From: an uncultured Candidatus Rokubacteria bacterium
GTDB lineage: Bacteria; Methylomirabilota; Methylomirabilia; Rokubacteriales; DASRDR01
Length of the DNA: 64,000 bases
Assembly: GCA_963826115.1 (NCBI GenBank)
Contig: CAWGVS010000010.1
Location: 96,001 to 160,000, forward strand
Direction of reading: 5' to 3'
Shown piece by piece: positions 3,812 through 41,145 of this stretch. Made by a program: the position numbers and the translations under genes. A model generated the notes under the pieces. The model searched no databases, was not told where the DNA came from, and saw only the letters and a list, made by a program, of their open reading frames with translations. Numbering within the stretch: position 1 is the stretch's first letter; each line of letters begins with the position of its first letter.

Positions 3812-3827
3812 TGCAAGCGGTGTGCCC
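3812..3827 (-). promoter_or_regulatory. sigma-54 promoter of gvp operon
   Basis: GGGCACACCGCTTGCA (GG-N10-GC). Confidence 0.75.
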
Positions 3828-4052
3828 CGAGTTCGCGCGGCGCGCTCGACGAGCTGCGCGCGAGCGGCCTCGAGAGGTGCGAGCCCGAGGTGCGAGCGCG
3901 TGAGCTCGACGGACCGGCCTTCGAAGTCCAAGTTTGACGGGCGTTGCGCGGGGTTCCCCGCGCAACGCCCAGGCCGCGGAGCGCTTGGAGGGCTGCGCCC
4001 CGAAGGGGGTCACCGCGGGCTCCCGTCGGCGCGGCGAGCGTCTCCGCCATGG

Positions 4053-4084
4053 CGACAGGATGTCGCCGAGACGACGCACTGTCG
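4053..4084. promoter_or_regulatory. tandem palindromic enhancer (bEBP UAS) pair
   Basis: CGACAGGATGTCG (4053) and CGACGCACTGTCG (4072), 19 bp apart. Confidence 0.75.
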
Positions 4085-4122
4085 TCCTCCGCGCCTTACC
4101 GTCCGATCTGAGGGCCTCGCCC

Positions 4123-5667
4123 TTACCGATCCGGAGGCGGATGCTTGATGAAGCTTCCGGTGAACGCCACGGAGTTCGGGAAGACGAGGGTCCGGCCGGT
4201 GGGCCCGAGCGGGTCGCCGGCGAGCTCCTGGAGCCGGGTGCGCACGAGCCCGATCTCGATCACCTCGCCGTGGAGGTACCCGAACGGCCCCTGGAGGCTG
4301 ACCCGGTCCCCGATGCGGATCCCGTTCGGCGCCACCATCGAGAAGTAGCCCGCCACGGCGAGGATCACGTTCTGGAGCGCGAAGGCGATCCCGGCGGCGG
4401 CGAATCCGAGCGCGGCAACGAGCGCCGTCAGCTCGCTCGCGAAGTGGAACACGAGCACCAGGGCGACCGCGGTCACGACGACGACGTGGCGCGCGGTCAG
4501 GACGAGCCGCCGATGGTAGCCGTTCTTGATGTAGCGGACGGCGGCGATCCGCCAGATCACCGAGCCCACCAGGATCCCGCCCAGCGCGATCGCGACGCCC
4601 ACCAGCTCGATGCCGAAGCCGCGGAGCACGTGTCCGATCTCGCGGTCGAGAGCATGCGCCCAGGCTTCCAGGTCGGCCGCGTAGCGCTGCAGGACCACGT
4701 ACTCCTCGCGGAGCGGCAGCACGACGGCCCCGGTCAGCTTGACGCGCCCGAGCAGGTCACGGAACTCCTGCTGTCCGGTGTCCAGCGCGATCCCGTCCGC
4801 GGCGGGGTCCTTGGCCAGCTGGCGGAGGCGCGTGACCATCGGGCGCACCGACTGCTGCGTCGTCCGGATGTCGGCGCCGACGGCCCGGGTCAGCTCGGCC
4901 GTCTGGCGCGTCAGCTCCTTGAGGGCGCCTCGGCTGCGTTGAAGGGCCAGGAGCCGGTACACGAGCATCCGGGGCCCGGCCGGCGGCATCCCTCGCCCCG
5001 CGGTCGTGACGACGGTCGACGGGCCAGCCGCCGGGGCGATCCCCGGCACGCTGTCCTGGAGCGCCTGGATGTCGTCCGTCAGGTCGGCGTCGTCTCCGGG
5101 GAGCGACGCGTCCACCTGGACGAGCTTGGTGACGAACTCGAGCTGGACCCGCCCGAACTCGAGCCGGTTGCTCGCGGCGGCGAGCTCCCGCTCGAGCCCC
5201 GGCCGTGTCGCGGGGGGCGCCGTGCGAAGGCGCGCCCGGAGGCGGGCGACCTCCTCCTCGTCGCGCGCGATGGCTGCCCGGATCTGGGCCTGCCGGTCCG
5301 CGCGGGCGCGCTGGCGGGACGTGGCGGCGCCGTTGGTCGAGCCGTCCTCCGTGACGATCTTGGCCTGCGCCCGCGCGGCGTCGAACGCCCGCAGGACCAC
5401 CCGCTGCGCCGTCTGCTGCTCGCCCCGGTCGAGGTCGGAGTCGAGCACGCCCCGGACGGACTGCATCGCGACGCGAGCGCCCTGGTACCAGGCGAGCGTC
5501 CGCTGGAGCGAGGCCTTGACGTCCTCCGTCGTCACCTCCGCCGCGGCTGTGGGGGCCGGCGGGTCGGCGCGGAGCGGGCGCCCGAGCACGCCCGTCTCCA
5601 GGAGCGCCAAGGTGGTGAGCGCGAGGCCGAGCGCGCGCGCCGAGCGACGTCGCGGAGTCGTGGTCAC
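4123..5667 (-). CDS. MscS-family mechanosensitive channel with long periplasmic coiled-coil N-terminus
   Basis: LGFAAAGIAFALQNVILAVAGYF...IRIGDRV...GEVIEIGLVRTRL...FPNS; signal-like N-terminus; start GTG 5667 inferred from the promoter position. Confidence 0.85.
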   Translation of the reverse strand: MTTTPRRRSARALGLALTTLALLETGVLGRPLRADPPAPTAAAEVTTEDVKASLQRTLAWYQGARVAMQSVRGVLDSDLDRGEQQTAQRVVLRAFDAARAQAKIVTEDGSTNGAATSRQRARADRQAQIRAAIARDEEEVARLRARLRTAPPATRPGLERELAAASNRLEFGRVQLEFVTKLVQVDASLPGDDADLTDDIQALQDSVPGIAPAAGPSTVVTTAGRGMPPAGPRMLVYRLLALQRSRGALKELTRQTAELTRAVGADIRTTQQSVRPMVTRLRQLAKDPAADGIALDTGQQEFRDLLGRVKLTGAVVLPLREEYVVLQRYAADLEAWAHALDREIGHVLRGFGIELVGVAIALGGILVGSVIWRIAAVRYIKNGYHRRLVLTARHVVVVTAVALVLVFHFASELTALVAALGFAAAGIAFALQNVILAVAGYFSMVAPNGIRIGDRVSLQGPFGYLHGEVIEIGLVRTRLQELAGDPLGPTGRTLVFPNSVAFTGSFIKHPPPDR

Positions 5668-5680
5668 GCGAGACTTCGGG

Positions 5681-5696
5681 TGCAAGGCGATTGCCA
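5681..5696 (-). promoter_or_regulatory. sigma-54 promoter of mscS-like gene
   Basis: TGGCAATCGCCTTGCA. Confidence 0.75.
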
Positions 5697-5719
5697 CGAC
5701 GTCTGGCGCGGACCACGTG

Positions 5720-5751
5720 AGAACGCTTGTCGCTCGCGCGACACCGTGTCG
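5720..5751. promoter_or_regulatory. tandem UAS pair between divergent promoters
   Basis: AGAACGCTTGTCG (5720) and perfect CGACACCGTGTCG (5739). Confidence 0.65.
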
Positions 5752-5782
5752 GGCCGCGCTACCGAGACGGTCCGCGCCGCCG

Positions 5783-5798
5783 GGGCATGCGGCTTGCT
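5783..5798 (+). promoter_or_regulatory. sigma-54 promoter of pafA
   Basis: GGGCATGCGGCTTGCT. Confidence 0.75.
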
Positions 5799-5812
5799 TC
5801 GTCGAGCTCGGG

Positions 5813-7395: not shown

Positions 7396-7427
7396 AGACA
7401 CGGCGTCGCCGGGGCGCCAGCGTGGCG
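7396..7427. promoter_or_regulatory. tandem UAS pair
   Basis: AGACACGGCGTCG (7396) and CGCCAGCGTGGCG (7415). Confidence 0.6.
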
Positions 7428-10047: not shown

Positions 10048-10063
10048 AGCAAGGCACATGCCA
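10048..10063 (-). promoter_or_regulatory. sigma-54 promoter of M48-psiE
   Basis: TGGCATGTGCCTTGCT. Confidence 0.85.
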
Positions 10064-10388: not shown

Positions 10389-10775
10389 TCACGAGCGACC
10401 GGTGGACCGCCGGGAGGATCGCGCGCGTGTGGCCCCGGAGGCCCCGGCGGCGCGCCGGCCGTTTCCCGTCGGAGCGTCCGGCTCGAGCGCCGTGATGGGG
10501 CGCTCCGTGAACAGGAACGCGCGTAGCACCTCGTCGAAGCTCGGGTCTCGCCGCCGGATCCACTCCAGCACCATTGCCGCGTGCTCCTTCTCCTCGTCCC
10601 GGTTGTGCCGGAGGATGGCCTTCAGCTCGCCGTCGGCGGCCGCCTCGATGCGCTGCTGGTACCAGTCGATCGCCTCGAGCTCCTCCATCAGGCTGACGAT
10701 CGCCCGGTGCATGTCGCGCGTGCCGGGCGTGAGCGCCTCCTCGGCCTCGTGAAACCCCGCGGAGCCTCCTGCCAT
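10389..10775 (-). CDS. encapsulin-associated-type ferritin-like protein (EncFtn family)
   Basis: HRAIVSLMEELEAIDWYQQR...ILRHNRDEEKEHAAMVLEWIRR...FLFTERPIT; AGGAG RBS. Confidence 0.9.
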   Translation of the reverse strand: MAGGSAGFHEAEEALTPGTRDMHRAIVSLMEELEAIDWYQQRIEAAADGELKAILRHNRDEEKEHAAMVLEWIRRRDPSFDEVLRAFLFTERPITALEPDAPTGNGRRAAGASGATRARSSRRSTGRS

Positions 10776-10819
10776 GTCGGGTCTCCTGTCTCGCGGGCGC
10801 GGGCCCGCGGCGTCATCGG

Positions 10820-13774
10820 TCAGCGCTCGTTAGCGGCCTCGAGGAGCGCGACCGGAAGGACGGCGAGCGCGGCGTCCAGCGGAAGGCCGGCCTGGCCCTC
10901 GCGGGTCGAGGGGACGACATCCTCTCCCGTCAGCGCGTTGCGGAAGACGCGAGACGCCCACGCCGTTGGCAGCGGGAGCCACGTCGCGGCCCACACCGAC
11001 GCCCCGAGCGGGGGGGCGGCGAGGTGGAGGCGCGCGAGGAAGCGCGGCGCGACCGCGATCGCCACGTCGTCGCCGAACGCGCGTCCGAACGCCACCACGT
11101 GCTCCCCGCGAAGCCCGCGGCCCTCCAGCGGCACGTAGGCTCCTTCGGCGAAGAGGGCCGCCCGGCGCCGCCGGCAGTCGAGGGCGCGATGGATGAGGTA
11201 CAGCTTGACCCGCCCGTCCTCCTTCGTCGCGAGGAGCGACGCGGCGAGCGCGGCGAGGTCGGCGTCCGGCGCCTCGAGCCGCGCCCGGATTCCGCGGAGG
11301 TCGGTCGCGAGGCGCGCGTAGTCCGGCGGCCGCCGGTTGTCCGGGTCGACCAGGCTCAGGTCCCACTCCTCGGCGCCCTGGTAGATGTCGGGCACCCCGG
11401 GCGCGGCGAGCTTCAGGAGGGTCTGCGCGAGCGAGTTGTAGACGCCCGCGTCCGCGATCCGCGCCTGGAACGGCCGGAAGTCGGCGAGGAACGGGTTGTC
11501 CCCCGGCGCGGCCGCGATGGCGCCGAGCAGGCGGCGGAGCGGGCCGCGCGCCCCCCCGGAGGGCGCGGACGGAGCGAGGATTGCCGCGACGAAGCGGGCC
11601 ACGGCCGCCTCGTACGCGGGGTTGGGGTGCACCCAGCTCGCGTGGACCTTGGCCTCGCGGATCGCCTTGAACGCGTACTGCTGGACGCGTCCCACGAAGG
11701 CGCCGCGCGTGGCCTCGTCCGAGTCGCCGGCCGGCCACGCGCCGAGCAGCGTCTGATACAAGAGGTACTCCTCGTTGGGGTCGGGCGCCGGCTGGCCGTC
11801 CACCACCGTGCGATGGCGGCGGTTGAGGCGGTGCCAGAGGCGCACCCGGGTCCGCCACTCGTGCGGGATCTCCGAGAGGACGTTGATCCGCGCGCGGACG
11901 TCCTCCCCACGCTTGGTGTCGTGGGTGGAGGTCGCCGACATCGCGTGCGGCCACCGCGCCGCGCGCTCCGCGTTCAGCCGGTGGAACTCCTCGAGGGGCG
12001 TGCCGACGCGGCCGGGCGCGCCGCCGACCTCGTTCAGCGAGATGAGCCGGAGGTAGCGGTAGAAGGCGGTGTCCTCCACGCCCTTGGCGGTGACCGGGCC
12101 CGTCAGCTGCTGGAACCGGCGCACGAAGTCGAGGTCGCCCGCGCGGCAGAGGAGGTCGGCGACGAAGTCGAAGATGGACGGGTTCGTCGTCGGGCTCCGG
12201 CGCTTCGCCTCGGCCACCGCGTTGGCCACGTGGGCGCGGTCCGGGGGGGACGCCGCCGGCCCGTCGTCGCCGATGTAGGTCCGGTATACCGGGAAACACG
12301 CGAGGATCTCGCGCAGCCCCTCGGTGAGGCTCCGGCCGGTGAAGTCGCGGGACTCGCGGCGCTCGCCGGCCAGCCGCGCGAGACGCCGGCCCAGCACGCT
12401 CACCTCGCCGGCCATGGTCGTCTCCGTGACCAGCCGGCGCGCCGCGTGCACGACGTCGGCGAAGGGCGCGGCGAGGCCCGTGAGCTGCTGGTAGGTCTGG
12501 TCGAGCCTCCGCGCGCCCTTCGGGTCCACGAAGATCCCGTTCAGCGCGTTGAGGAACTCGTACCCGGTCGTGCCGTGGACCGGCCAGTGAGCGGGCAGGG
12601 ATTCTCCCGGCATCAGAACCTTCTCGACCACCACGTAGAACGGGCGGTCGGCCGGGCCGGGCTCCCGGTCCCCCGACTGCGCGCGCGCGCACCGCTCGCG
12701 GAGCTCGGCAAGGTAGCGCGCGGGGTGGTAGAGGCCGTCGGGGTGGTCGATCCGGAGGCCGGTGATGCGTCCCTCGGCGACGAGCCGGAGGAGTAGCCGG
12801 TGGGCCGCGTCGAAGACGGCCGGATCCTCCACGCGGATGGCCGCCAGGTCGTTGACGTCGAAGAAGCGCCGGTAGTTGATCTCGTCCCCGGCGACGCCCC
12901 AGTAGGCGACGCGGTACGCCTGCGCGCGGAGGAGCGTGTCGAGGCGGTCGAAGCTCTCGGGCCGGCCGAGCGTGCCGTTCATGAGATGGAGCGTGTCCTC
13001 GACCTGCGCCTTCACCGCCGGCGTGTCCCGCACGAGGGCGTCGAGACGGCGCTTGACGGCGTCCGCCGCGCGGGCGCGCTCGGCCCCGCCTCCCGCCGCG
13101 CCGCTGCCGGCCCGGGGCGGCAGGCGGCGAGCGGCGGCGACGATGCTCCGGAGCTCGGCGCCGTGCCGGCCCTCATCCCCGAGCGAGGCGTCGGGCTCGC
13201 CCGGTCGCGTGGCCAGGATGTCGGGGTAGGTGCCGGGGTCGATCGGCAGCGCGTGCTCCCAGTAGCGGACCACGAAGGCCCCGTCCTCGTACTGGAGCCG
13301 GAGCTCCTGGCGCTCGAGCACGCGGCCGTAGTGATCCTCGAGGATCGGGAGAAGCACGCGGTCGCGGAGCTCGGGCCGGAGGGGCTCCCAGTCGATGTCG
13401 AAGAAGGACGCGAACGCCGAGGCCGGCCCGTGCTCGAGCACGTCCTGCCACCAGGCGTTCCGGCGGCACGCGATGCCCATGTGGTTCGGGACCACGTCGA
13501 CGACCTGCCCCATCCCGTGCGCCCGAAGCGCGTCGCCGAGCGCCGCGTACGCGACTTCTCCGCCCAGCGCCTCGTTGAGCTGCCCGTGATCCGCCACGTC
13601 GTAGCCGTGGGAGTCCGGCGCGCAGGGCTGGAGAATCGGCGAGAGGTAGCAGTCCGTGACGCCGAGCTCCGCCAGGTACGGGACGAGGTCGCGGGCGCCC
13701 GCGAACGTGAGCCCGGCCCCGAGCTGGAGCCGGTACGTGGCGCCGGGGAGGCGCGGGCCGGCGGCGGCCCTCAC
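10820..13774 (-). CDS. treY: malto-oligosyltrehalose synthase
   Basis: ATYRLQL, YLSPIL, HGYDV, DVVPNHM, INYRRFFDVNDLAA, GLRIDHPDGL, STHDTKRGEDVRAR, PGVPDIYQG, LVDPDNRRP; GTGA overlap with glgX. Confidence 0.95.
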   Translation of the reverse strand: MRAAAGPRLPGATYRLQLGAGLTFAGARDLVPYLAELGVTDCYLSPILQPCAPDSHGYDVADHGQLNEALGGEVAYAALGDALRAHGMGQVVDVVPNHMGIACRRNAWWQDVLEHGPASAFASFFDIDWEPLRPELRDRVLLPILEDHYGRVLERQELRLQYEDGAFVVRYWEHALPIDPGTYPDILATRPGEPDASLGDEGRHGAELRSIVAAARRLPPRAGSGAAGGGAERARAADAVKRRLDALVRDTPAVKAQVEDTLHLMNGTLGRPESFDRLDTLLRAQAYRVAYWGVAGDEINYRRFFDVNDLAAIRVEDPAVFDAAHRLLLRLVAEGRITGLRIDHPDGLYHPARYLAELRERCARAQSGDREPGPADRPFYVVVEKVLMPGESLPAHWPVHGTTGYEFLNALNGIFVDPKGARRLDQTYQQLTGLAAPFADVVHAARRLVTETTMAGEVSVLGRRLARLAGERRESRDFTGRSLTEGLREILACFPVYRTYIGDDGPAASPPDRAHVANAVAEAKRRSPTTNPSIFDFVADLLCRAGDLDFVRRFQQLTGPVTAKGVEDTAFYRYLRLISLNEVGGAPGRVGTPLEEFHRLNAERAARWPHAMSATSTHDTKRGEDVRARINVLSEIPHEWRTRVRLWHRLNRRHRTVVDGQPAPDPNEEYLLYQTLLGAWPAGDSDEATRGAFVGRVQQYAFKAIREAKVHASWVHPNPAYEAAVARFVAAILAPSAPSGGARGPLRRLLGAIAAAPGDNPFLADFRPFQARIADAGVYNSLAQTLLKLAAPGVPDIYQGAEEWDLSLVDPDNRRPPDYARLATDLRGIRARLEAPDADLAALAASLLATKEDGRVKLYLIHRALDCRRRRAALFAEGAYVPLEGRGLRGEHVVAFGRAFGDDVAIAVAPRFLARLHLAAPPLGASVWAATWLPLPTAWASRVFRNALTGEDVVPSTREGQAGLPLDAALAVLPVALLEAANER

Positions 13775-15924: not shown

Positions 15925-16952
15925 TTCTCCGAGCCGGCGCCGACCGGCTCGGTCAGGCGATCCAGCCACGGCGGCGTGATCCGGAGGCGCTCGAGGCTCC
16001 GCACCACCCGGCGCGGTGATCCCCAGTCGCACCAGGTCACGCCGGTCAGCATCGCGACGGCGAGCATCGGGGCCACGTGTTCCAGCACGTCGCGGGAGAA
16101 GTTGGCCACAGGGAGGGCGGCGTGAAGGCGCCGGACCGCCTCCGGCCGCGCCCCGCCGCTCGCCAGGCGCATCACCCGTTCGAGCTCCGCGTGAAGCCCC
16201 GGGACGCCCCGCCGCCCCGCTTCCACTAGCGCGCGCGCCTTTCCCACGAAGACGAACGTGTTCCATGCCGCTCCCACCGCCAGGCACCGTCGCGCCACGT
16301 CGAGGGAGGGCTTCTCGACGAATCGCCGGACGGCGCGCACGACCGTTCGGCCGGCGTGGCCGAGGCCCGCGCCCGGTTCGATCCAGCCGTACTCCGTCTC
16401 GGCCTCCGTCGCGGGTACTCCGAGGAGCACGATTCGCCCCGGGTGCGCGTCGACGTACACGGCGGCGTCCGCGACCTGGGCCATGAACGCCTCCTCGAGC
16501 ACGAGGTGATCGGACGGAAAGACGGCAACCGTCGCGTGGGGAGCCCGGCTCGCGATCCAGTGGACGGGGAGGAGCACCCCGGCTGCCGTCCCCCGATCGA
16601 CCGGCTGGAGCAGGATGCTCGGGCTCGGGTCGGGCATCGCCATTGCGAGATAGCTCGCGTGGCTCTCGACGCTGATGACGACCGTGCGAGGGGCCGGGAC
16701 TCGGAGGGCCGTGCGATCGAGCGTCTGGCGGAGGAGGGACCGGCTCCCGGTGACGGTCACGTATTGCTTTGGACGGTCGTCGCCGCAGATGACGCGTGTG
16801 AGCGGCCGGAGCCGGACGCCTTCGCCGCCGGCGAGGATGACGGCCCAGAGCCCGCCGGCGGCCTGCCGGCGCACCGACGCTGGCGGCGGGGGAGTGCCGG
16901 GTGACGTTGCGGTCTCGGTGACGGAAGAATCGACCGCGATGGGCAGCGTCAT
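15921..16952 (-). CDS. sugar-phosphate nucleotidyltransferase (mannose-1-phosphate guanylyltransferase-like)
   Basis: VILAGGEGVRLRPL...PKQY, QPVDRGTA, FPSDH, EYGWIEPG, FVEKP, WCDWGS. Confidence 0.85.
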   Translation of the reverse strand: MTLPIAVDSSVTETATSPGTPPPPASVRRQAAGGLWAVILAGGEGVRLRPLTRVICGDDRPKQYVTVTGSRSLLRQTLDRTALRVPAPRTVVISVESHASYLAMAMPDPSPSILLQPVDRGTAAGVLLPVHWIASRAPHATVAVFPSDHLVLEEAFMAQVADAAVYVDAHPGRIVLLGVPATEAETEYGWIEPGAGLGHAGRTVVRAVRRFVEKPSLDVARRCLAVGAAWNTFVFVGKARALVEAGRRGVPGLHAELERVMRLASGGARPEAVRRLHAALPVANFSRDVLEHVAPMLAVAMLTGVTWCDWGSPRRVVRSLERLRITPPWLDRLTEPVGAGSEK

Positions 16953-16964: not shown

Positions 16965-16980
16965 TGCAACCGCGATTCCA
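16965..16980 (-). promoter_or_regulatory. sigma-54 promoter of NTase-glgX-treY-EncFtn operon
   Basis: TGGAATCGCGGTTGCA. Confidence 0.7.
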
Positions 16981-20908: not shown

Positions 20909-20919
20909 CGGTCGCTTCC

Positions 20920-27665: not shown

Positions 27666-27697
27666 TGTCATGGTGGCGTCGAGGCGACACCCTGACG
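27666..27697. promoter_or_regulatory. tandem UAS pair
   Basis: TGTCATGGTGGCG (27666) and CGACACCCTGACG (27685). Confidence 0.65.
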
Positions 27698-27725
27698 AAA
27701 CACACGCATCCTCCGCGCCGCGGCA

Positions 27726-27741
27726 TGGCACTGCCCTCGCT
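27726..27741 (+). promoter_or_regulatory. sigma-54 promoter
   Basis: TGGCACTGCCCTCGCT. Confidence 0.65.
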
Positions 27742-29926: not shown

Positions 29927-29942
29927 TGCGAAACGCATGCCG
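29927..29942 (-). promoter_or_regulatory. sigma-54 promoter of AI-2E gene
   Basis: CGGCATGCGTTTCGCA. Confidence 0.65.
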
Positions 29943-29995
29943 GCCGCTTTCTAGCCCTTGGCCGCGGTCCACGCGACGCGAATGTCGCCGATTCG

Positions 29996-30027
29996 CGTCG
30001 TCGTGTCGCCACCACGACACCGTGGCG
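29996..30027. promoter_or_regulatory. tandem UAS pair between divergent promoters
   Basis: CGTCGTCGTGTCG (29996) and CGACACCGTGGCG (30015). Confidence 0.7.
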
Positions 30028-30082
30028 CTCACTCGCTCGCGGGAACGCGCGGGATATCCCGGAACCGACGTTGCGCCGGCGG

Positions 30083-30098
30083 CGGCACAGGGATTGCC
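30083..30098 (+). promoter_or_regulatory. sigma-54 promoter
   Basis: CGGCACAGGGATTGCC. Confidence 0.75.
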
Positions 30099-30558: not shown

Positions 30559-32292
30559 ATGACCCTCGACGACCTGTTCCTCTTCGTGCAGCGTGGGATC
30601 GATCGGCTGATCCGGCGGCTCAGGCTCGGCGCCCCGCCGCCCGTGGGCCGGCGACGCCTCCTGGTGGTCCAGATCGACGGGCTGTCGCGTGCCGTGCTCG
30701 AGGCGGCCCTGGCTCGCGGGGACATGCCGGTCCTCCACGAGCTCCTCGGGCATCCAGCCGGACGGCCCCGCCGGGGCCGGCGCCCATCGCGACGGGGCCA
30801 CGGCAGTCACCGGCTCTGCTCGATGACGGTCGGCCTCCCGACGTCGACGCCGGCGTTCCAGATGGCGGCGATGTACGGCGTCCAGCCGGACATCCCGGGC
30901 TTCCACTATCACGACAAGCGGCGCGGGACCGACATCCACTTCCCCCACGCGGGTCACGCCGCCTTCGTCGAGGCGAGCCAGGCGGGCGGGCGGTCCGGCA
31001 TCCTCCGGGGCGGCAGCGTCTACGGATGCGCGTTCACGGGGGGCGCCGAGCACGACTTCTTCAGCTTCGCCCGGCTCACGCGGCCGCGCGCCCCCGGGCT
31101 CGTCCGCGTCCTGTCGGCGTTCGTGCTCGTCGGATGGGTGACGGCCAAGAGCGCGGCGCTCTCCGGCGCCGAGGTCGTCCGGACGCTGGGCGGTGTCGCG
31201 CGGCACCCCCGCCGGCGCGCCGACGCGTGGCGATGGCTGAAGAAGCGGATCGGCGTATCGGTGTGGACGCGCCAGTGGTTCACGTTCGCGGTGGCCCGCG
31301 ATGTCTACGACGGGGTGCCGGCCATCTACGTCAACTACCTCGACCACGACGAGGGGGCGCACGCCTTCGGCCCGCGGAGCGCGGCCGGGTTCGCGGGCCT
31401 CCGCGCGGTCGACCGCTCGCTCCGGCAGATCCGGCGCGCGCTCCGGCGCGTGCCCGAGCATCGCTACGACCTCTACATCCTCTCGGATCACGGCCAGGCC
31501 GCCTGCACCGCATACTCCACGCTGCGCGGCGGCCGGCGGTTCGAGCGGGCCTTCTTCGACGAGGTCCTGCCGGGCATCGGCGGGGCAGGCTCCCGGTCGA
31601 CGAGGCCGTGGCTGGCCGGCCCGCTCGCGTCCGGCGCCGCGGCCGGCCGCGGGCGGGCGATCGAGCTCGGCTTCGCGCCCTATCTCGACGTGCGCGAGTC
31701 GTGGGAGCAGGACGGCGTCCGCGTGGTCTCGGCCGGGCCGAACGCGTTCGTCTACTTCCTCGACGCGCCCGAGCCGCTCCTGCTCGACGCGATCGAGTCC
31801 CGCCGACCCGGATTGCCCGCCGTCCTCTCCAAGAGTCCCGGCGTCGGGTTCGTGCTCGCTCGATCGGCGGCCGGCCCCGTCTGCTTCTGGCGCGGCCTGA
31901 CCTATCGTCTCGGGGACCACGCCGGTCCGTTCGCCGACCGGGAGGACCGCGCGGTCCTGGTCCGGGACCTCTCGACCCTGATGGCGATGCCGAGCGCCGG
32001 CGATCTCGTGGTCTACGGCACCGGGGCCCCGGAAGGCCACGTGTCCTTCATCGACGAGATCGGCGCCCACGCCGGCCCGTCGCCGGAGGAGCTCCATACC
32101 TTCGTCGTCGCACCCGCGTCGGCGCGCATGCCGGAGTCGATCGACCACCCGCTCCAGCTGTACCCGCTGTTCCTCGCCTACCAGTTCGGCGGCGCGGAGT
32201 CCGAGGTCGAGCCGGTCGAGGACGATGACAAGCTGTCGGCGCGGCGACACGGCCACGGGTCGCCGCCCTGGCGGTGCGCGGTCTCGGCTTGA
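30559..32292 (+). CDS. alkaline phosphatase superfamily (type I phosphodiesterase-like) protein
   Basis: LVVQIDGLS, LPTSTPAFQ, YLDHDEGAHAFGP, ILSDHGQ, GAHAG. Confidence 0.8.
   Translation: MTLDDLFLFVQRGIDRLIRRLRLGAPPPVGRRRLLVVQIDGLSRAVLEAALARGDMPVLHELLGHPAGRPRRGRRPSRRGHGSHRLCSMTVGLPTSTPAFQMAAMYGVQPDIPGFHYHDKRRGTDIHFPHAGHAAFVEASQAGGRSGILRGGSVYGCAFTGGAEHDFFSFARLTRPRAPGLVRVLSAFVLVGWVTAKSAALSGAEVVRTLGGVARHPRRRADAWRWLKKRIGVSVWTRQWFTFAVARDVYDGVPAIYVNYLDHDEGAHAFGPRSAAGFAGLRAVDRSLRQIRRALRRVPEHRYDLYILSDHGQAACTAYSTLRGGRRFERAFFDEVLPGIGGAGSRSTRPWLAGPLASGAAAGRGRAIELGFAPYLDVRESWEQDGVRVVSAGPNAFVYFLDAPEPLLLDAIESRRPGLPAVLSKSPGVGFVLARSAAGPVCFWRGLTYRLGDHAGPFADREDRAVLVRDLSTLMAMPSAGDLVVYGTGAPEGHVSFIDEIGAHAGPSPEELHTFVVAPASARMPESIDHPLQLYPLFLAYQFGGAESEVEPVEDDDKLSARRHGHGSPPWRCAVSA
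32226..32257. promoter_or_regulatory. tandem UAS pair inside the 3' end of the upstream CDS
   Basis: TGACAAGCTGTCG (32226) and CGACACGGCCACG (32245, weaker). Confidence 0.5.
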
Positions 32293-32340
32293 TTCTGGCC
32301 GCGTTCGAGCCGATCCGTACCTACTCGACGCGGGCGCGAC

Positions 32341-32356
32341 TGGCATGCCACTCGCA
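32341..32356 (+). promoter_or_regulatory. sigma-54 promoter
   Basis: TGGCATGCCACTCGCA. Confidence 0.7.
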
Positions 32357-32833: not shown

Positions 32834-34127
<1,294 letters not shown>

Positions 34128-34422
34128 GGGCCGGCGACTCGGCTCGGGCAGGGAGGGGCCGACGGGTCCGACGAGCGCAGGCGAGGCCGCCCGGCGGCGG
34201 TCACGCCGACCGGCCGGCGGTCGCCGCCGTCACGGGCTAGGACCCGAACGGGCCGCATGAAGGCATCGCCGTCCTTCCCTGGCATCCCGATGTCGGGACA
34301 CTAGCACGTCGGGCTGCCGGGAGGCGAGAGGTTGTCGGCGGCAGCCGGTGGGAGCGGGCGTGGGCGTCACGGCGCGCCGCTCGGCCGCGGCGCGGTCGAG
34401 CCCGGGCGCGTCGGCTCCGCGG

Positions 34423-36473
34423 TCAGGACGAGTGCGCGGAGCACCTCGGCCACGCTCCACGCCTGCGCGATGCACCCGCGCGGCGTGAACGGCGCCTCGG
34501 CGTCGAAGATCTCGCTGATACTGCCGACGCACGCCTCGTCGAGGTGCGGCCAGAAGCCGTCGAGCAGGCTGCGGGCCGTCGCCCGGTCCTCGGGGTGGAC
34601 GCGGAGCCAGGCGTCGACGAACGGGCCGATGAGCCAGGCCCAGACCGTGCCCTGGTGGTAGGCCGCGTCGCGCGCTCGGAGGTCGCCGTCATACGTCGCC
34701 TTGTAGTCGGGGTGGCCGGGGGCCAGCGATGCGAAGTCCGACCGGCGTGAGGAGGCGGGTCCGGACCACCGTCAGCACCGGCGGCCACCGCGCCTCGGTC
34801 CAGGACCGGGTGGCGGAGCGAGATGGCGAACAGCTGGTTGGGCCGGCAGGCCGCATCGTCGCCTGCTCGCCGTCGACCACGTCGTAGAGGTAGCCGCCGT
34901 CGGCGTACCAGAAGCGGCGGTTGAACGACGCGCGCGCGTTCGGCGGCCCGGGCCGCCAACGCCGCCGCGGGCTCGTCGCCCTCTTCCTCCCGGAGCCACC
35001 CCTCGAGGAGCCGGAGGGCGTTGTACCAGAGCGCGTTGATCTCGACCGCCTTGCCGCGCCGCGGCGTCACCACCCAGTCGTCGACCTTGGCGTCCATCCA
35101 GGTGAGCTGGTAGCCGTCCGCGCCCTGGCGGAGCAGACCGTCCGCCGGGTCGACGCCGATGCCGAACCGCGTGCCGGCGAGGTGGTGGTCCACGATCGCG
35201 ACCAGGGTCGGCAGGAGGAGCGCGGAGCGTGCCGCGGTCCGCCGTCGCCGCGAGGTAGCGGTCGAGGGCGTGGAAGTACCAGAGGCGTCGCGTCGGCCGT
35301 GTGGTAGAGCCCGTCCCGCGCGCCTTCCGGGAACATGTTGGGGATCAGGCCGTCGCGCACGTAGTGGGCGAACGTGCGCAGGATGTAGCCGGCCTCGACG
35401 TGGCGGCCCGTGAGCAGGGTCAGGCCCTCGAGGCTGATCATCGTGTCGCGTCCCCAGTCGGTGAACCAGTGGTAGCCGGCGATGATCGTGCCGCGCCTCG
35501 TCGCCGGTCGCCGCGCGCGAGCGCGGCGTCCGCCACGCGCCCCGCCGGCGTGATGACGAACTGGTCGGCGGCCAGCACGAGCTCCGCGGCCGGCCCGGTC
35601 CGGGCGAGCGGATGCGCGGCCGCGAGCAGGCGCCGTCGCCGCACGCGCTCGGCGCGCTCGGCGGTCTCGGGATCGAGCGCGTCGCATGGCCTCCCACGAC
35701 TCGGTCGAGGCGACGAGGGTGCTCGCTTCGCTCCGGCTCGAGCGTCACGCGGAAGTACCCGGGGCTCCAGAGGTCACCGGTCGCCTCGTAGCCGCGACTC
35801 TCCTCCACCGGGTACAGGACCTGCTGGATCGTGTGCCCCGACACGCGGAAGGCGGCGGCCGGGCCGTGCATGCGGAACCGGAGCGCGCGGGAGCTCCGGC
35901 GTCGCGAAGAGCTCGTAGCGATCGCCCACGACCGTGAGCCGCGTAGGGCCCGGCCAGGGGATCGCTCACGGGCCGCTCGTGCGGGCGGAAGTGGACCGCC
36001 GGCCGCACGTGGAGATCGAACGGGGCCGGCGCCGGCGATGCAGCCGGTAGCTCACGTGGACGGTGTTCTGGCGGTAGGGCAGCAGCAGGCGCTTCTCGAG
36101 GGCGACCGCGGCCGAGCTCGTACCGCCAGACCGGCAGCCCGCTCTCCAGGCGGAACTCCGCGAGGTCCAGGAGCTCGCGCCGGCTTCGCCGCTCGCCGTC
36201 GACCTCCCGCCCGTCGCGGGAGCGGCGACGCCGGCGTCCGCCAGGTCGAGTCGCTCGTGCAGGTGGCTCAGCATGATCATCCGGCCGAGCGGCGCCGGGA
36301 GCGCGGCGATCAGCAGCCCGTGGTAGCGGCGCGTCATGCGCGCCGGACACCGTTCCCGACGCGTAGCCGCCGAGCCCGTTGGTCACCAGCCACTCGCGCG
36401 TGCGCCGCGCCGCCGGGTCTCGGCGGACGTCACGTGCGGGCCAGGCGGATGCGGCGCGACCAGCTCGGCTCAT
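34423..36473 (-). CDS. amylo-alpha-1,6-glucosidase (glycogen debranching enzyme family), multiply frameshifted
   Basis: Fragments EWLVTNGLGGYASGT, TRRYHGLL, IIAGYHWFTDWGRDTMISLEGL, GLIPNMFP, QLTWMDAK, PRRGKAVEINALWYNAL, RPNQLFA. Confidence 0.8.
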
Positions 36474-38389
36474 CCCACACGCCGTCGAAGCACCAGCGCC
36501 GCGCTGGCCCGGGAGGCCCCACGCACGCCGTCGGGATCCACCGCCGGCGTCCCGAGCCGCCGTAGCGGATCGCTTCGCTCGACCAGCGGAGCTGCCAACG
36601 CGCCCCGGCCGGCGGTGCGAGCAGCGGCTCGGCGACCGAGGGCAGCGTGAGGTCACGGCCGAGGTTGACGCAGCAGCAGGCGGTCGCCCGCCTCGGCGCG
36701 TTCCCCGAAGAAGCGCAGCACGAACGCCTCCGGTCCGAGCACGGCGCCGTCGACCCCGCTTCGCCGCTGCGCGCGGAAGACCGGGTCCTCCCGGCGCAGG
36801 CGGAGCAGGTCGCGGTGGAGCGCATAGGCGGCGGCGTGTCGCTCGCGCTCCGCGAAGTCGAGCTTGCAGCGCTCGAACGTCGCCGGTCGCGCCGGGTCGG
36901 GGACCGCCGCCTGCGCCTCGGCGCCGCGCGAGGCTCGGGAACTGGCGCGAGGAACTGGCGCGCGCCCCGCCCGGACCCGCTTCGCCAGCTCGGGCTCGTG
37001 GTCGGCGAAGTAGAGGAACGGGCTGGACGCGGCGAACTCCTGCCCCTGGAACAGCATCGGCGTGCCCGGCGCCGAGCAGCAGCAGCGCCGTCATCGCGCG
37101 GTAGCGCCCGGGGCTGGTCAGCGCGGTCGCCGCGGAGCCCGCCGGGCGGAGTTGGCGACCTGGTCGTGGTTCTGCGATGAAGTGCACGAAGCGACGCGGG
37201 CGCGAGGTCCGAGCGCCGGCGTGCCGCGCCGCTTGCCTCTGCCACGCGTAGCGCTGCCCCTGGTAGAGGTAGCCGCGCTTGACCGCCGAGATGAGCTCCT
37301 GCGGCGTGCCCGCGGTAGTCGCGTGTAGTAGGCCTCGGCGCGGCCGGTCAGCGCGACGATCGCGCGCGTGGTGGAAGTCGTCGTTCCACAGCGCGTCGAG
37401 GCCGTAGCCGCCGCTGCTCGGCGGGCGCGACGAGGCGCGCGTCCTGCGGCTCGTTCTCGGCGACGACGAAGATCGCGCGGCCGCCGGCCGCCGGCCCGCG
37501 CCTGGCGCGCGATCGCGGCCAGGATGTGCTCGCGGCGAGCGCGTCGAAGATCGTCCTGCGTCGCGTCGAGCCGCAGGCCGTCGAGGTGGAACTCGTCGAT
37601 CCAGTAGCCGGCGTTGGCGACGAAGAACTCGCGCACCGGCCCGGCGCCCGCGCCGTCGAAGTTGATCGCCTCGCCCCACTCGGTGCGCGTGACGCGTCGG
37701 TGAAGTAGGCCGGCGCAGAACTGCGCCAGGTAGTTGCCGTCGGGCCCGAGGTGGTTGTAGACGACGTCGAGGATCACGCCGAGGCCGAGCGCGTGGGCGC
37801 GGTCGACGAAGCGCGCGGAAGTCGTCGGGCCGGCCGTAGAGGCGCGTCGGCGCGAACAGATCGACGCCGTCGTAGCCCCAGCCGAAGTCGCCCGGGGAAC
37901 TCGGCGACCGGCATGACCTCGAGCACGGTGATGCCCGAGCGTCGGCCAGCTCCGGCAGCTCGCGGCGCGGCCGCGTCCCAGGTGCCCTCCGCGCGTGAAC
38001 GTGCCGACGTGCATCTCGTAGACGACCTGGCCCTCGCGCCGGACGCCCGGCCAGCGCGCCGTCGGTCCACGCGAAGGCGCCCGGGTCGACGACCTGCGAC
38101 GGGCCGTGCGGCCCCTCCGGCTGGAAGCGCGACGCGGGATCGGGCAGCGGCCCGGCCCGCCGTCGAGCCGGTACGCGTAGGTCGCTCCCGCCCGGACGCC
38201 GGCGACGAGACCGGCGTGGTACCCGTCGGGCTCCGTGGCGAGGGCGACGTGGCGATCGTGGAGCTCGACCTCCACGCTCGTGGCCGCCGGCGCCCACACG
38301 CGGAAATGCGCGCCGCTGCCGTCGGGGACGAGCTCCGCGCCGACCGGCAGGCGGCGCCATGCGGGGGGCGAGGGGGGGCGCGTTCGCAC
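36470..38389 (-). CDS. treZ: malto-oligosyltrehalose trehalohydrolase, multiply frameshifted
   Basis: HFRVWAP, PDPASRFQPEGPHGPSQVVDP, YEMHVGTF, WGYDGV, DVVYNHLGPDGNYL, DEFHLDGLRLDATQ, WNDDFHH, QNHDQVAN, MLFQGQEF. Confidence 0.82.
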
Positions 38390-38402
38390 AGCGGGACCTC
38401 GG

Positions 38403-38418
38403 GGCAACTTCTATACCA
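38403..38418 (-). promoter_or_regulatory. sigma-54 promoter of treZ operon
   Basis: TGGTATAGAAGTTGCC. Confidence 0.75.
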
Positions 38419-38493
38419 GACAACGGCCGCGTGCGCCGCTCCGGTCCGGCCGGAGAACGCCGCCCGCGCTCGAAGACGGTCTCACGGCCCGGG

Positions 38494-38525
38494 CGCCACC
38501 GTGTCGCCGCGACGACACCGTGACG
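38494..38525. promoter_or_regulatory. tandem UAS pair between divergent promoters
   Basis: CGCCACCGTGTCG (38494) and CGACACCGTGACG (38513). Confidence 0.82.
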
Positions 38526-38628
38526 TTAGTAGGCCGGGATCTGACACGGCTTCGTCCCGGTCGTGATCGCGCACAAATGCGCGCGTGGAGCGCTCCGCGG
38601 CCCACGCCGCCCGCGCTCCGGATCGCGG

Positions 38629-38644
38629 TGGCACCCGGCTTGCT
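38629..38644 (+). promoter_or_regulatory. sigma-54 promoter
   Basis: TGGCACCCGGCTTGCT. Confidence 0.88.
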
Positions 38645-38699
38645 CCGACACCCTGGTATGCGCAATGAGCGGATCGTGGACATTCAGGGAGGCGTGAGC

Positions 38700-39383
38700 A
38701 TGACGACTGAGTTCCGTACCCTCATCACCGTGGCGGCGCTGGCGGCCCTCGTCGGCACGGCCGATGCCGGTTCGGCGCCCGCGCCGAAGACCGTGGCGGC
38801 GACGTCGGCCAAGGCGACGGAGCCCATCAAGGACACGAAGCGGTTCGCCGAGAACGCCGGCCTCTCGCGGGCGAGCTCGGTGATCGGAAGCAGCGTGAAG
38901 GATCTGTCCGGCAAGGACGCCGGAAAGGTCGAAGACCTCCTGCTCGACTACCGCGGACACGTCGGCTACGCCGTGGTGTCGTTCGGCGGGTTCCTGGGCA
39001 TCGGCGACAAGCTGTACGCGGTGCCGTGGGACGCCGTGATCGTGGATCAAGAGAAGCGGACGGTCTACCTCGACGTGAAGAAGGAAGCACTCGAGCACGC
39101 CCCGAGCTTCTCGTCCGACAAGTGGCCCGAGCAGAACGATCGCACGTGGGGCCAGGCAGTCAAGAAGGCCTGGAGCGATGCCTCGATCACCGCTTCGGTC
39201 AAGACGAAGCTGGCGGGCACGGCGCCCGCCACGCTCCTGAAGGTCGACGTCGACACGACCAACGGGATCGTGCAGCTGAACGGCACGGTCGACAGCGACA
39301 AGACGCGCCAGCGCGCGACCGAGCTGGCCCGTCAGGTCGACGGGGTGCGCCGCGTGGTGAACAACCTCAGGGTGCAGAGCTAG
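38700..39383 (+). CDS. secreted PRC-barrel + BON domain protein
   Basis: RASSVIGSSV...GKVEDLLLD...YAVVSFGGFLGIGDKLYAVPW, then a BON domain (DASITASVKTKL...VDGVRRVVNNL); GGGAGG RBS. Confidence 0.88.
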   Translation: MTTEFRTLITVAALAALVGTADAGSAPAPKTVAATSAKATEPIKDTKRFAENAGLSRASSVIGSSVKDLSGKDAGKVEDLLLDYRGHVGYAVVSFGGFLGIGDKLYAVPWDAVIVDQEKRTVYLDVKKEALEHAPSFSSDKWPEQNDRTWGQAVKKAWSDASITASVKTKLAGTAPATLLKVDVDTTNGIVQLNGTVDSDKTRQRATELARQVDGVRRVVNNLRVQS

Positions 39384-39496
39384 CGCTCGCATCTCGAGGG
39401 GGCTCGTCTCGCGGCCTCGCGGAGCCCGGGAGCGCCGGCTTGGCGCCGCCCGGGCTCCGTCCGTCGACCGCATCACCGAACCGCAAGGAGGGTCTC

Positions 39497-40144
39497 GTGG
39501 CGAAGAACGCCGGTTCCAGCGCGCCGAAAGCCTACCGCCCGCGTGAGTTCGATCTCGCGGGACTTGCAGGCATCTCCGACGCCCAGATCGAGGAGCACCT
39601 CGCGCTCTACGCGGGATACGTGAAGCAGGTGAACGCCTTGAACCAGGGGCTGGCCGAGCTGCGCGGTCGCGGCCAGGCGTCGAGCAAGAGCCCGGAGTTC
39701 GCCGAGCTCACGCGCCGGCTCGGCTTCGAGTACAACGGCATGATCCTGCACGAGTACTACTTCGGCAACCTGCGCGCCGCCGCGGACCCTGCGCCGCCAG
39801 GGCGGTCGGGCCTGTCGGAGGCGCTCGCCGGCTCGTTCGGGTCCGTCGAGCACTGGCGGACGGACTTCCAGGCGATCGGCGGGATGCGAGGGGTTGGCTG
39901 GGCGGTCCTCTTCCAGGATCCGGTCACCGAGCGCCTGACCAATCACTGGATCTCGCTGCACCAGGACGGCGTGCCCGCGGGATTCAAGCCGCTCCTGGTG
40001 ATGGACGTCTGGGAGCACGCGTACATGCGCGACTACAAGGCGACCGAGCGCGACCGGTACATCGAGGCGTTCTTCCGGAACATCGACTGGTCCGCGGTCG
40101 AGACGCGGCTCCAGGACGAGCGCGCCGTCCGGCCCGCGGCCTGA
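39497..40144 (+). CDS. Fe/Mn superoxide dismutase family protein
   Basis: EEHLALYAGYV, LHEYYF, GWAVL, PLLVMDVWEHAY...YIEAFFRNIDW; AAGGAGG RBS. Confidence 0.88.
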   Translation: MAKNAGSSAPKAYRPREFDLAGLAGISDAQIEEHLALYAGYVKQVNALNQGLAELRGRGQASSKSPEFAELTRRLGFEYNGMILHEYYFGNLRAAADPAPPGRSGLSEALAGSFGSVEHWRTDFQAIGGMRGVGWAVLFQDPVTERLTNHWISLHQDGVPAGFKPLLVMDVWEHAYMRDYKATERDRYIEAFFRNIDWSAVETRLQDERAVRPAA

Positions 40145-40169: not shown

Positions 40170-40201
40170 CGTCACGCTGTCGTCGCGACGACACCGTGGC
40201 G
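40170..40201. promoter_or_regulatory. tandem UAS pair
   Basis: CGTCACGCTGTCG (40170) and CGACACCGTGGCG (40189). Confidence 0.8.
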
Positions 40202-40265
40202 AGGACGACCGAGAGGAACACCCGGCCTGGCGGGCGTTTCAGCGTCACGGGCCACGGGATCGACC

Positions 40266-40281
40266 CGGCACGCGACTTGCC
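40266..40281 (+). promoter_or_regulatory. sigma-54 promoter
   Basis: CGGCACGCGACTTGCC. Confidence 0.8.
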
Positions 40282-40355
40282 CTGACTAACGTCGGGGGCC
40301 GCGTGACGCGGCCGCAGCTAGAAACGGGCCGCGATCGCGCGGCGCGGAGGGCAGC

Positions 40356-40544
40356 ATGCGAGGCGCACGGGGCTGGATCGGAATCGCACTGGGGCTCGGC
40401 GTGCTTCTCGCCTGATGCGACCAGGGCCCGGCCCAGAAGGCGGGCGAGAAGATCGACCGGGCTCTCGACCGGCTGAGTGGCAAGGGGCCGCTCGAGAAGG
40501 CCGGCGAGCGGATCGACAAGGCGGTCGAGGAGCTCAAGAAGTAA
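40356..40544 (+). pseudogene. small stress lipoprotein with an in-frame TGA inside its lipobox
   Basis: GGAGG RBS; MRGARGWIGIALGLGVLLA*CDQGPAQKAGEKIDRALDRLSGKGPLEKAGERIDKAVEELKK; TGA at 40413-40415 where the Gly of LAGC is expected. Confidence 0.7.
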
Positions 40545-40619
40545 GGCGGCCGGGCCGGGCGCGCGTCCGGGACACAGCGGACCCGGGCAACGAGCGAACC
40601 GGCGAAGGAGGACATGACG

Positions 40620-40790
40620 ATGCTGTCGATGGCCCTGACGTTCCTGATCGTGGGGCTCGTGGCCGGGCTCCTCGGGCTCTACGGCGTCGCCGCCGTGGCG
40701 ACGCAGATCGCGTGGGTGCTGTTCCTGGTGGGCGTGGTGCTGCTCGTGGTGCACGTGGCCCGGGCGCGACGGCTCCCGCCTGTTGTGTGA
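40620..40790 (+). CDS. DUF1328 (YtjA-like) small membrane protein
   Basis: AAGGAGG RBS; MLSMALTFLIVGLVAGLLGLYGVAAVATQIAWVLFLVGVVLLVVH. Confidence 0.85.
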   Translation: MLSMALTFLIVGLVAGLLGLYGVAAVATQIAWVLFLVGVVLLVVHVARARRLPPVV

Positions 40791-40804
40791 AGGGGGAACG
40801 AACC

Positions 40805-40888
40805 ATGGGCGCTCTGCGGAGCCTGATCACGGCGATCGGCATCTGGCTCGCGTTCGTCCTGGTGTTCACCTCGATCGTCGGCGCCTAG
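40805..40888 (+). CDS. 27-aa single-TM peptide
   Basis: AGGGGGA RBS; MGALRSLITAIGIWLAFVLVFTSIVGA. Confidence 0.55.
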   Translation: MGALRSLITAIGIWLAFVLVFTSIVGA

Positions 40889-40996
40889 GGGCGTGTCAGC
40901 GCCCAGGCGCGCGGTGAGCCGGCGCACCGAGTCGCCGGCGGCAACGCGCGGCCACCCCGCGGTGACCGCGATTCACGCAGTCGAGGAGGTGACGAC

Positions 40997-41086
40997 GTGG
41001 CTCATCAGTACCGCTGTGAGAAGTGCGGACACGTGTCGGACCGGCCGGGCAGCTGCTGCGGTCAGCCGATGAAGGAAATCTCCTAG
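40997..41086 (+). CDS. 29-aa desulforedoxin-like metal-binding peptide
   Basis: GAGGAGG RBS, GTG start; AHQYRCEKCGHVSDRPGSCCGQPMKEIS (CxxC...CCG-x-PM); followed by a terminator. Confidence 0.75.
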   Translation: MAHQYRCEKCGHVSDRPGSCCGQPMKEIS

Positions 41087-41106
41087 CCCACTCGCGGGCC
41101 TACTCG

Positions 41107-41145
41107 GGGAGCGGGACGGCGAGAGCCGCCCCGCTCTCTCTTTTT
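41107..41145 (+). terminator. Rho-independent terminator
   Basis: GGGAGCGGGACGGC-GAGA-GCCGCCCCGCTCTC hairpin followed by TCTTTTT. Confidence 0.75.

Follow-up and report, generated by a model that had tools for sequence, protein, structure and literature searches.

A probable sigma-54 regulon in an uncultured Rokubacteria bacterium: general-stress-type genes, one two-component activator and a defined palindromic enhancer

A 64,000-nt stretch of an uncultured Candidatus Rokubacteria genome (the window; C10:96001-160000 in a 6.24-Mb, 12-contig genome of 72% GC) was analysed for a cluster of -24/-12 promoters, the type used by sigma-54 (RpoN). The sequence evidence points to general-stress-type genes joined in a sigma-54 regulon that one two-component activator controls through a defined enhancer, a reading that we consider probable. 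The type of switch is known and the gene set is known; their apparent wiring to each other was not found described in the literature. An earlier reading of the same DNA (the sequence-only reading) had proposed a general-stress regulon run by sigma-54, clustered in about 38 kb (the island). Its sigma-54 control of general-stress-type genes was upheld, but the claims that the system is self-contained and serves the whole lineage were not, and a system that takes the place of RpoS would be too strong a reading. Motifs, positions, conservation, co-occurrence and gene families were computed, while binding, phosphotransfer, start sites, the signal, autoregulation and co-induction were inferred.

All 19 GG-N10-GC elements listed in the sequence-only reading were found at their positions (Table 1), and the form TGGCA-N6-TTGC, said to prevail among them, was exact in only 7. 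A sigma-54 matrix was built from 96 training sites, all from outside C10:80-140 kb; its invariant positions were fixed by design because the training set was seeded on the known sigma-54 consensus. In the matrix scan, which had been suggested as a check, 18 of the 19 sites scored 12.5-20.6 bits. The claimed site 29927 scored only 7.0 bits, yet had an enhancer 70 bp upstream, and one site absent from the first list was added at 8253 (+, 17.5 bits). The island had 21 matches of at least 11 bits versus 2.2 (maximum 5) in 60 third-order Markov simulations, and the claimed absence of such sites at 41.2-64 kb was borne out by 0 matches at 11 bits. GGCA-Nn-TTGC occurred in the island in 16 copies at n = 6 and in 1 copy across nine other spacings combined. 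By manual count, the stretch from gvpJ through the DUF1328 cluster has 20 transcription units, 19 of them with a co-oriented site in front, in agreement with the claim of a site before nearly every unit; the sole unit without one was the kinase-activator operon.

Among intergenic sites at 13 bits, the island had 16 in 9.1 kb and the rest of the genome 127 in 762 kb, which made the island about 10 times richer per intergenic base (training sites are included among the 127). It was the densest 37.5-kb bin genome-wide, with 17 sites at 13 bits, compared with 10 in the next unrelated cluster and a median of 1. The cluster extended about 9 kb past the left edge of the window. One intact rpoN was found in the genome, its three domains complete and the RpoN box present. 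The matrix picked up the textbook targets glnA (16.6 bits) and glnK (17.8 bits), named by sequence reading; at 13 bits, 154 of the 172 sites in the genome were outside the island and included, from reading of the downstream sequence, glnA, glnK, pilins, lpxC and glmS. Sigma-70-like boxes had been reported to the right of the island instead. Five intergenic TTGACA/TTGACG boxes were found there, but three were found in the island too and none was paired with a -10 box, leaving a weak contrast. By consensus strings, the island gave 0 SigB-type, 0 RpoS-type (CTAYACT) and 1 intergenic EcfG-type (GGAAC...GTT) match.

Among 31 promoters with a start codon within 44 nt, 12 had it 13-15 nt past the C of the -12 element (genes were called by an in-house codon-score script, and start positions are approximate), as expected of leaderless mRNA beginning about 12 nt downstream. 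The sigma-54 promoters of the island are taken to be real. A peak of TAnnnT 6-9 nt ahead of start codons was seen genome-wide (275/5331 genes), which suggests that leaderless mRNAs occur at sigma-70-type promoters also.

An unbiased count of spaced palindromes upstream of the island promoters yielded TGTCG-N6-CGACA, and a matrix built on 37 sites from four relatives gave the full form of this enhancer, a 32-bp palindrome (CGnCA-N3-TGTCG-N6-CGACA-N3-TGnCG) whose TGT-N10-ACA core resembles the NifA site. The enhancer was located 40-130 bp upstream at 16 of the 19 claimed sites, and five enhancers were placed between divergent promoter pairs. With at most one mismatch, its core was found at 16/22 promoters of the extended island, against 6/147 sigma-54 promoters elsewhere and 1% of 1500 genes picked at random. 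The matrix had 40 genome matches at 14 bits, and 15 of the 23 top-scoring ones were in the island or its left extension. Other sigma-54 promoter groups in the genome bore different palindromes; therefore, the enhancer is not a general sigma-54 feature. The enhancer-promoter distances leaned to a helical phasing of 10.5 bp (R 0.40, p 1.5e-4; 54 pooled, non-independent distances). A search for the IHF consensus between enhancer and promoter gave 0 strict matches in 54 kb of this 72% GC genome.

The two regulatory genes are adjacent. The model of the sensor domain of the kinase had a pLDDT of 79 and its closest fold was the WalK extracellular domain (E 1e-6); the kinase scored under the NCBIfam cut-offs for AtoS and ZraS. 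The activator scored below the cut-offs of all named NtrC-family orthologs compared (NtrC, AtoC, ZraR, GlrR, PrsR), the best being AtoC (455 vs 714 bits), and reached 430 bits against a cut-off of 559 for NtrC. Its named homologs were from Methylomirabilota/Rokubacteria. Across four genomes of the genus the activator was 91-93% identical and its neighbours mostly 57-91%, and the recognition helix S(V/I)RTLQR was retained in 30/30 ortholog loci. The island activator is proposed as the master activator and is most likely the reader of the shared enhancer. In relative G024 (contigs C17 and C26), the kinase, the activator and csbD each had two copies of identical score, from duplication or an assembly artefact.

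Upstream of the kinase start, TGnTA(G/A)ACT at 9-10 nt and a weak enhancer centred at 44-48 bp were each found in 9/9 genus loci. The box at 17577..17585 is likely a sigma-70-type leaderless promoter of the regulator operon, and the weak enhancer overlapping this promoter suggests negative autoregulation. The sigma-54 site at 20441..20454 was also found in 9/9 genus loci.

The comparison of orthologous islands, also suggested earlier, showed, among the positions listed, four syntenic genus genomes with 15-18 sigma-54 sites and with enhancers at orthologous places; the back-to-back pair 8245/8253 was kept in three relatives. Besides this synteny, recent acquisition of the island found no support in its composition, which was genome-like (69-75% GC, as in the genome; GC at third codon positions 0.93 vs 0.94), or in mobility genes, with no integrase among the 80 window proteins scanned.

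Among 121 genomes of the order Rokubacteriales, the enhancer pattern was present in 45/50 with an activator ortholog and 3/71 without (44/48 and 3/70 minus three unpublished genomes), and the association also held inside genera having both states. A reversed control pattern matched in 2 of the 121. The number of enhancers per genome was 13-28 in 9/10 members of the genus and 0-6 in other genera. The remaining member, G026 (91% complete), had no activator, no csbD or topIB match and one enhancer match. In 30 loci from other genera (65/114 called genes scanned), the enhancer-promoter unit most often lay ahead of a gene for a stand-alone receiver, with otsB, otsA or treT, or else glgX, mscS, BON or DUF748 genes, coming next; some units preceded unrelated transporters or had no paired promoter. 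A residue of the helix-turn-helix was dropped as a predictor of enhancer presence, as enhancers were found near activators with other residues.

For csbD, a sigma-54 site of at least 11 bits within 300 nt was found in 24/29 relatives' loci (genus 7/7; other large family 17/22), taken from the best 30 among 63 genomes with a match, and in 0/77 loci outside the lineage (Variovorax, Chloroflexota, Paracoccus and others). Among named genomes, Candidatus Rokubacteria supplied the three nearest csbD loci. For topIB, a site was found in 27/29 relatives' loci (30 taken from 34 genomes) versus 3.4% of random genes. In two other phyla the count was 1/14 (1/12 minus two unpublished genomes), but many of these genes look internal to operons, and the matrix was tuned to Rokubacteria. 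Stress promoters outside the genus were without this enhancer; therefore, sigma-54 control looks order-wide and activator control genus-specific. The claim of one activator for the lineage accordingly applies to most island promoters in this genus, by shared enhancer and co-occurrence, but not elsewhere, where csbD and topIB lack the enhancer. Another family of the class had one-mismatch enhancer matches in 2/5 genomes and no paired sigma-54 site. In the Acidobacteriota phylum, the enhancer was found in 13/251 genomes versus 11 for the reversed control, a background level with few leads; 3/12 of the loci looked at had a paired sigma-54 site.

By eye, csbD in Variovorax and Xenophilus was preceded by conserved TCCTAC ... 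ACAGT/ACATT about 18 nt apart with no sigma-54 site, and Paracoccus csbD loci carried GGAAC...GTT instead. At three outside loci (L291, L292, L296), a palindrome resembling the enhancer lay 51-145 bp ahead of sigma-54 sites; the one in L291, from an Acidobacteriota-phylum genome of 41% GC, was 72 bp before the site and a DUF2383 gene.

The target set was of the general-stress type, with trehalose, MscS, non-homologous end joining, topoisomerase IB and small conserved proteins; CsbD, BON and DUF1328 are hallmark members of general-stress regulons. Two earlier gene labels fared differently: DUF883 was confirmed by neither Pfam nor NCBIfam, while MscS was supported by ESM Atlas but not by Pfam. 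The regulon is not self-contained in the island, since nine enhancer-promoter units were on other contigs or far off. These preceded topoisomerase IB, DUF6496 together with a phospholipase D gene, DUF748-Ku-hemerythrin, a CBS protein and a cation efflux gene; four were less clear. The treZ, debranching and metallo-beta-lactamase-fold genes, broken in this assembly, were whole in relatives; therefore, assembly indels are likely. The hybrid PAS kinase at window 201-2798 was likewise in pieces. Window 10179-10431 held only remnants of a 270-residue gene that comes after the encapsulin ferritin in relatives and that, by context alone, is presumably encapsulin-shell-like.

In the proposed mechanism, the membrane kinase (17595-19073) would phosphorylate the adjacent NtrC-type activator (19070-20437), which would bind the four half-sites of the 32-bp palindrome, probably as two dimers side by side. 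From an enhancer 40-130 bp from the -24/-12 element, often one between two divergent promoters, the activator would loop to sigma-54 polymerase and open the promoter through ATP hydrolysis. The predicted targets are trehalose/glycogen turnover (treY, treZ, glgX), MscS, the CsbD/BON/DUF1328/DUF3309 small proteins, superoxide dismutase, ferritin and the second Pup ligase; those outside the island are topoisomerase IB, DUF6496 and the Ku operon. The regulator operon would be transcribed from its sigma-70-type promoter under the weak enhancer, with putative autoregulation. In other genera the same pair appears to control a small module of trehalose and MscS genes, so that water or osmotic stress is the most likely cue; this genus would have extended that module to 13-28 enhancers.

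Several observations weigh against this regulon. No enhancer was found within 200 bp of the claimed sites 3812, 8231 and 20440 or the added site 8253. The dedA-ligD cluster had a 12.3-bit site without enhancer, ligD had no directly adjacent site, and sodC had no adjacent sigma-54 site. Phasing was weak in this genome by itself (p 0.02, best period 9.4). The enhancer matrix favours island sites because it was drawn from orthologous sites of relatives, and the activator ortholog cut-off (E 1e-20 over the C-terminal 103 residues) was our own choice. Co-occurrence partly reflects physical linkage, since many enhancers are less than 3 kb from the activator and a missing contig removes both, and its counts come from kin that are not independent. 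Outside the genus, 22 csbD and 23 topIB loci lacked the enhancer even where an activator ortholog was present, and no convincing replacement was found in 55 upstream regions at the stress promoters of other genera. The fold search on the sensor domain returned only a PAS/Cache-like fold, with no ligand indicated. About 28 genes in the genome encode an activator domain, and an RpoS-like sigma gene is present in a surE-pcm-acylphosphatase-nlpD-rpoS-like cluster (C5:746615-750413). This sigma was under the RpoS cut-off (288 vs 379 bits) and had a near-full-length match in about 95 of the 121 order genomes; a reading in which general stress is run through RpoN in place of RpoS is therefore too strong.

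Three other explanations were weighed against the proposed regulon. The regulon may be real and under the island activator but serve a specific osmotic/desiccation or envelope programme, with the RpoS-like sigma or another regulator covering starvation and cross-protection. Trehalose synthesis and MscS as the targets conserved across genera, the periplasmic sensor with its WalK-like fold and the widely matched RpoS-like gene agree with this; nevertheless, we regard it as unlikely, because the enhancer also marks TopIB, the Ku operon, superoxide dismutase, CsbD, DUF6496 and pafA, a breadth like that of EcfG, and because the island has no RpoS-type -10 box (CTAYACT) and the sigma falls below RpoS cut-offs. 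Less likely still is that the main activator is another order-wide protein needing no nearby enhancer, to which the island activator adds a genus-specific input at some promoters. It would account for csbD (17/22 other-family loci) and topIB keeping their sites without enhancer, also in genomes without the ortholog, where several of the csbD and topIB sites abut the next gene and so have no room for one, and for four strong island sites without enhancer. Within the genus, however, the enhancer was kept at orthologous positions at most promoters, the activator was more conserved than its neighbours, and G026, which lacks the activator, also lacks csbD and topIB matches. Finally, the motifs would not be working sigma-54 promoters if they were chance matches in DNA of 72% GC, copied repeats or sites of another factor, a view helped by the one claimed site at 7 bits. 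The spacing control, Markov null, orientation, paired enhancer and leaderless spacing, with the order-wide conservation despite changed spacers and the absence before csbD in the 77 outside loci, make it highly improbable.

A cascade from RpoN to RpoS was rejected, as no sigma-54 site or enhancer was found before rpoS, nlpD or surE (best 8.3 bits). The surE-nlpD-rpoS-like cluster occurs here in a non-proteobacterial phylum, and three more RpoD-like paralogs were found elsewhere in the genome. Seven of the roughly 28 activators were giant (1100-1430 aa), with an N-terminal sigma-54 activator domain without canonical GAFTGA (e.g., C10:519354-522713 and C12:99990-104063); several were divergent from a strong sigma-54 site.

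The scope of a sigma-54 activator is usually narrow; the NtrC-family systems NtrBC, ZraSR and AtoSC target nitrogen, zinc/envelope and acetoacetate functions, respectively. In the Rrp2-RpoN-RpoS cascade of Borrelia, sigma-54 transcribes rpoS and so also stands above a stress-type programme, whereas here the targets would be direct, with no site before the rpoS-like gene. Acinetobacter baumannii is without RpoS, and its BfmR is an OmpR-type regulator acting with sigma-70; in the present case, the output would depend on sigma-54 with an ATPase activator, in a genome that also has an RpoS-like sigma. BfmRS is alike in that a two-component system rather than a stress sigma governs genes for desiccation and general stress, those for trehalose synthesis among them (PMC6181384). 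TopIB, Ku, MscS and treY/treZ/glgX are EcfG-dependent in Sphingomonas melonis (PMC6599016), and the EcfG (ECF15) regulons of S. melonis and of Sinorhizobium meliloti RpoE2 (PMC6180224) resemble the set described here in these and in PRC-barrel and CBS targets, in two-component input and in single-domain receivers among the targets. They differ in that an extracytoplasmic function sigma is freed by PhyR-NepR partner switching and acts at GGAAC...GTT, in place of the -24/-12 promoters here. NmpRSTU of Myxococcus xanthus (PMC11841059) likewise pairs a kinase with a receiver-AAA+-helix-turn-helix activator and has dyad enhancers before -24/-12 elements of several operons, but its site is GCGCA-N5-TGCGC and its targets concern oxygen use. 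Sigma-54 promoters before osmotic or stress genes of non-model phyla have been predicted in Planctomycetia, for MscS and UspA (PMC12316311), and in Desulfovibrio vulgaris, where DVU3305, over two operons, is labelled 'general stress response' (PMC4641369); in the available parts of both papers no multi-operon general-stress set with a defined enhancer and activator was found. The main text of PMC12316311 does not mention Methylomirabilota or Rokubacteria, the available text on Ralstonia rpoN2 (Ray et al. 2015; PMC4371752) does not use the words stress, trehalose or catalase, and trehalose, OsmY and CsbD are absent from that of Francke et al. 2011 (PMC3162934). Literature searches, whose coverage fell short of most subscription journals and bioRxiv supplements, brought up no sigma-54 general-stress regulon of several operons.

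If the proposed regulon is correct, an activator over a general-stress set would be a further architecture, with a tight off-state and ATP-driven switching replacing sigma competition. More tentatively, and as a claim that could well fail, sigma-54 with a two-component ATPase activator may be a further general-stress design beside RpoS, SigB and EcfG; all Rokubacteriales may wire these genes to sigma-54, and this genus may show the growth of the activator from a trehalose/MscS module to a master regulator by enhancer gain. How a regulon grows would be readable from the contrast between genera (1-6 vs 13-28 enhancers). For Rokubacteria, soil bacteria that are uncultured, the named kinase, activator, binding site and target list are testable in E. 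coli without culture.

Table 1. Promoter elements, enhancers and genes of the island (window positions; bit scores by the sigma-54 or enhancer matrix).
Positions	Strand	Feature	Details
3813..3826	-	Sigma-54 site before gvpJ-gvpA-hybrid kinase-gvp operon	14.7 bits; closest enhancer 242 bp away
4053..4084		Enhancer	26.6 bits; 93 bp upstream of weak site at 3975
5682..5695	-	Sigma-54 site before MscS-type gene 4123-5667	17.8 bits; start 14 nt downstream
5720..5751		Enhancer common to divergent mscS and pafA promoters	20.9 bits
5784..5797	+	Sigma-54 site before second Pup ligase pafA 5813-7165	14.3 bits; start 15 nt downstream
7396..7427		Enhancer-like site, no paired promoter found	21.5 bits
8232..8266		Back-to-back sigma-54 sites	8245 - (19.2 bits), 8253 + (17.5 bits); no enhancer within 800 bp
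10049..10062	-	Sigma-54 site before M48 peptidase and PsiE genes	20.3 bits
10130..10161		Enhancer	27.8 bits; 83 bp upstream of 10062 site
10389..16952	-	Operon of sugar-phosphate nucleotidyltransferase, glgX, treY, encapsulin-type ferritin	Pfam; glgX and treY above TIGR cut-offs
16966..16979	-	Sigma-54 site before glgX-treY operon	14.6 bits
17092..17123		Enhancer	36.9 bits; 128 bp upstream of 16979 site
17442..17455	-	Sigma-54 site divergent from regulator operon	20.6 bits
17532..17563		Enhancer over -35 region of regulator operon	23.9 bits; 92 bp upstream of 17455 site
17577..17585	+	Extended -10-like box TGATAGACT	9 nt ahead of kinase start
17595..19073	+	Sensor histidine kinase	Two membrane helices, single periplasmic PAS/Cache-like domain, HAMP, HisKA, HATPase; Pfam
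19070..20437	+	NtrC-family sigma-54 activator	Receiver, AAA+ with GAFTGA and Walker A/B, C-terminal Fis-type helix-turn-helix
20441..20454	+	Sigma-54 site 4 bp past activator stop codon	20.1 bits; no enhancer; start 13 nt downstream
20468..22615	+	Stand-alone receiver protein, nucleotidyltransferase, metallophosphoesterase	
24054..24165	-	Sigma-54 site and enhancer before PCC-domain gene	Site 24067, 15.9 bits; enhancer 24134-24165
26013..26225		Divergent sigma-54 sites flanking one enhancer	26026 -, 26212 +; enhancer 26113-26144
	-	Left operon at 26026 site: small helical protein, holin-X-like, DksA/TraR finger	Pfam
26648..27469	-	csbD, BON-domain, DUF3309 genes	Pfam
27540..27740		Divergent sigma-54 sites flanking one enhancer	27553 -, 27727 +; enhancer 27666-27697
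29928..30097		Divergent sigma-54 sites flanking enhancer	29941 - (weak; before AI-2E transporter), 30084 +; enhancer 29996-30027
32226..32355	+	Enhancer and sigma-54 site before dodecin-like gene	Enhancer 32226-32257; site 32342
32834..38407	-	treZ, glycogen debranching enzyme, receiver-metallo-beta-lactamase-fold genes	Fragmented in assembly
38404..38643		Divergent sigma-54 sites flanking best enhancer	38417 -, 38630 +; enhancer 38494-38525 (37.5 bits)
38658..40144	+	PRC-barrel/BON protein and Fe/Mn superoxide dismutase	
40170..40888	+	Enhancer and sigma-54 site, then small-protein cluster with DUF1328	Enhancer 40170-40201; site 40267

At the left end, gvpA/J, G, L/F and K (window 2802-3551 and 3.2 kb beyond the left edge of the window) shared an operon with a cytoplasmic PAS kinase and a receiver, preceded by a sigma-54 site, and a MEDS-domain gene adjoined this gas vesicle operon. 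The pafA gene at 5813-7165 was a second Pup ligase copy; the other copy, 63% identical, was near a dop-like gene on C6. At the right end, window 57988-64000 had a lower GC content (64-66%) and carried glycosyltransferase, methyltransferase and acyltransferase genes. For part of the island, small shares (0.08 and 0.05) were present in two contig sets from soil metatranscriptomes; they were not counted as evidence.

Two other enhancer types were seen in the genome. The palindrome TGGGGC-N6-GCCCCA was upstream of sigma-54 sites in 5/5 genome copies, at USP/CBS genes, and belonged to a second sigma-54 cluster (C3:138-198 kb, C6:956-960 kb) before USP, CBS and HPF genes, near which an activator gene was located (C3:187223-188605); this cluster looks like a low-oxygen/dormancy programme. 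The third type, TGCAC-N8-GTGCA, was found at C1:22.4, C6:566, C6:778, C10:60.5 and C10:282 kb, often in tandem 21-22 bp apart, and adjoined an activator gene in two cases.

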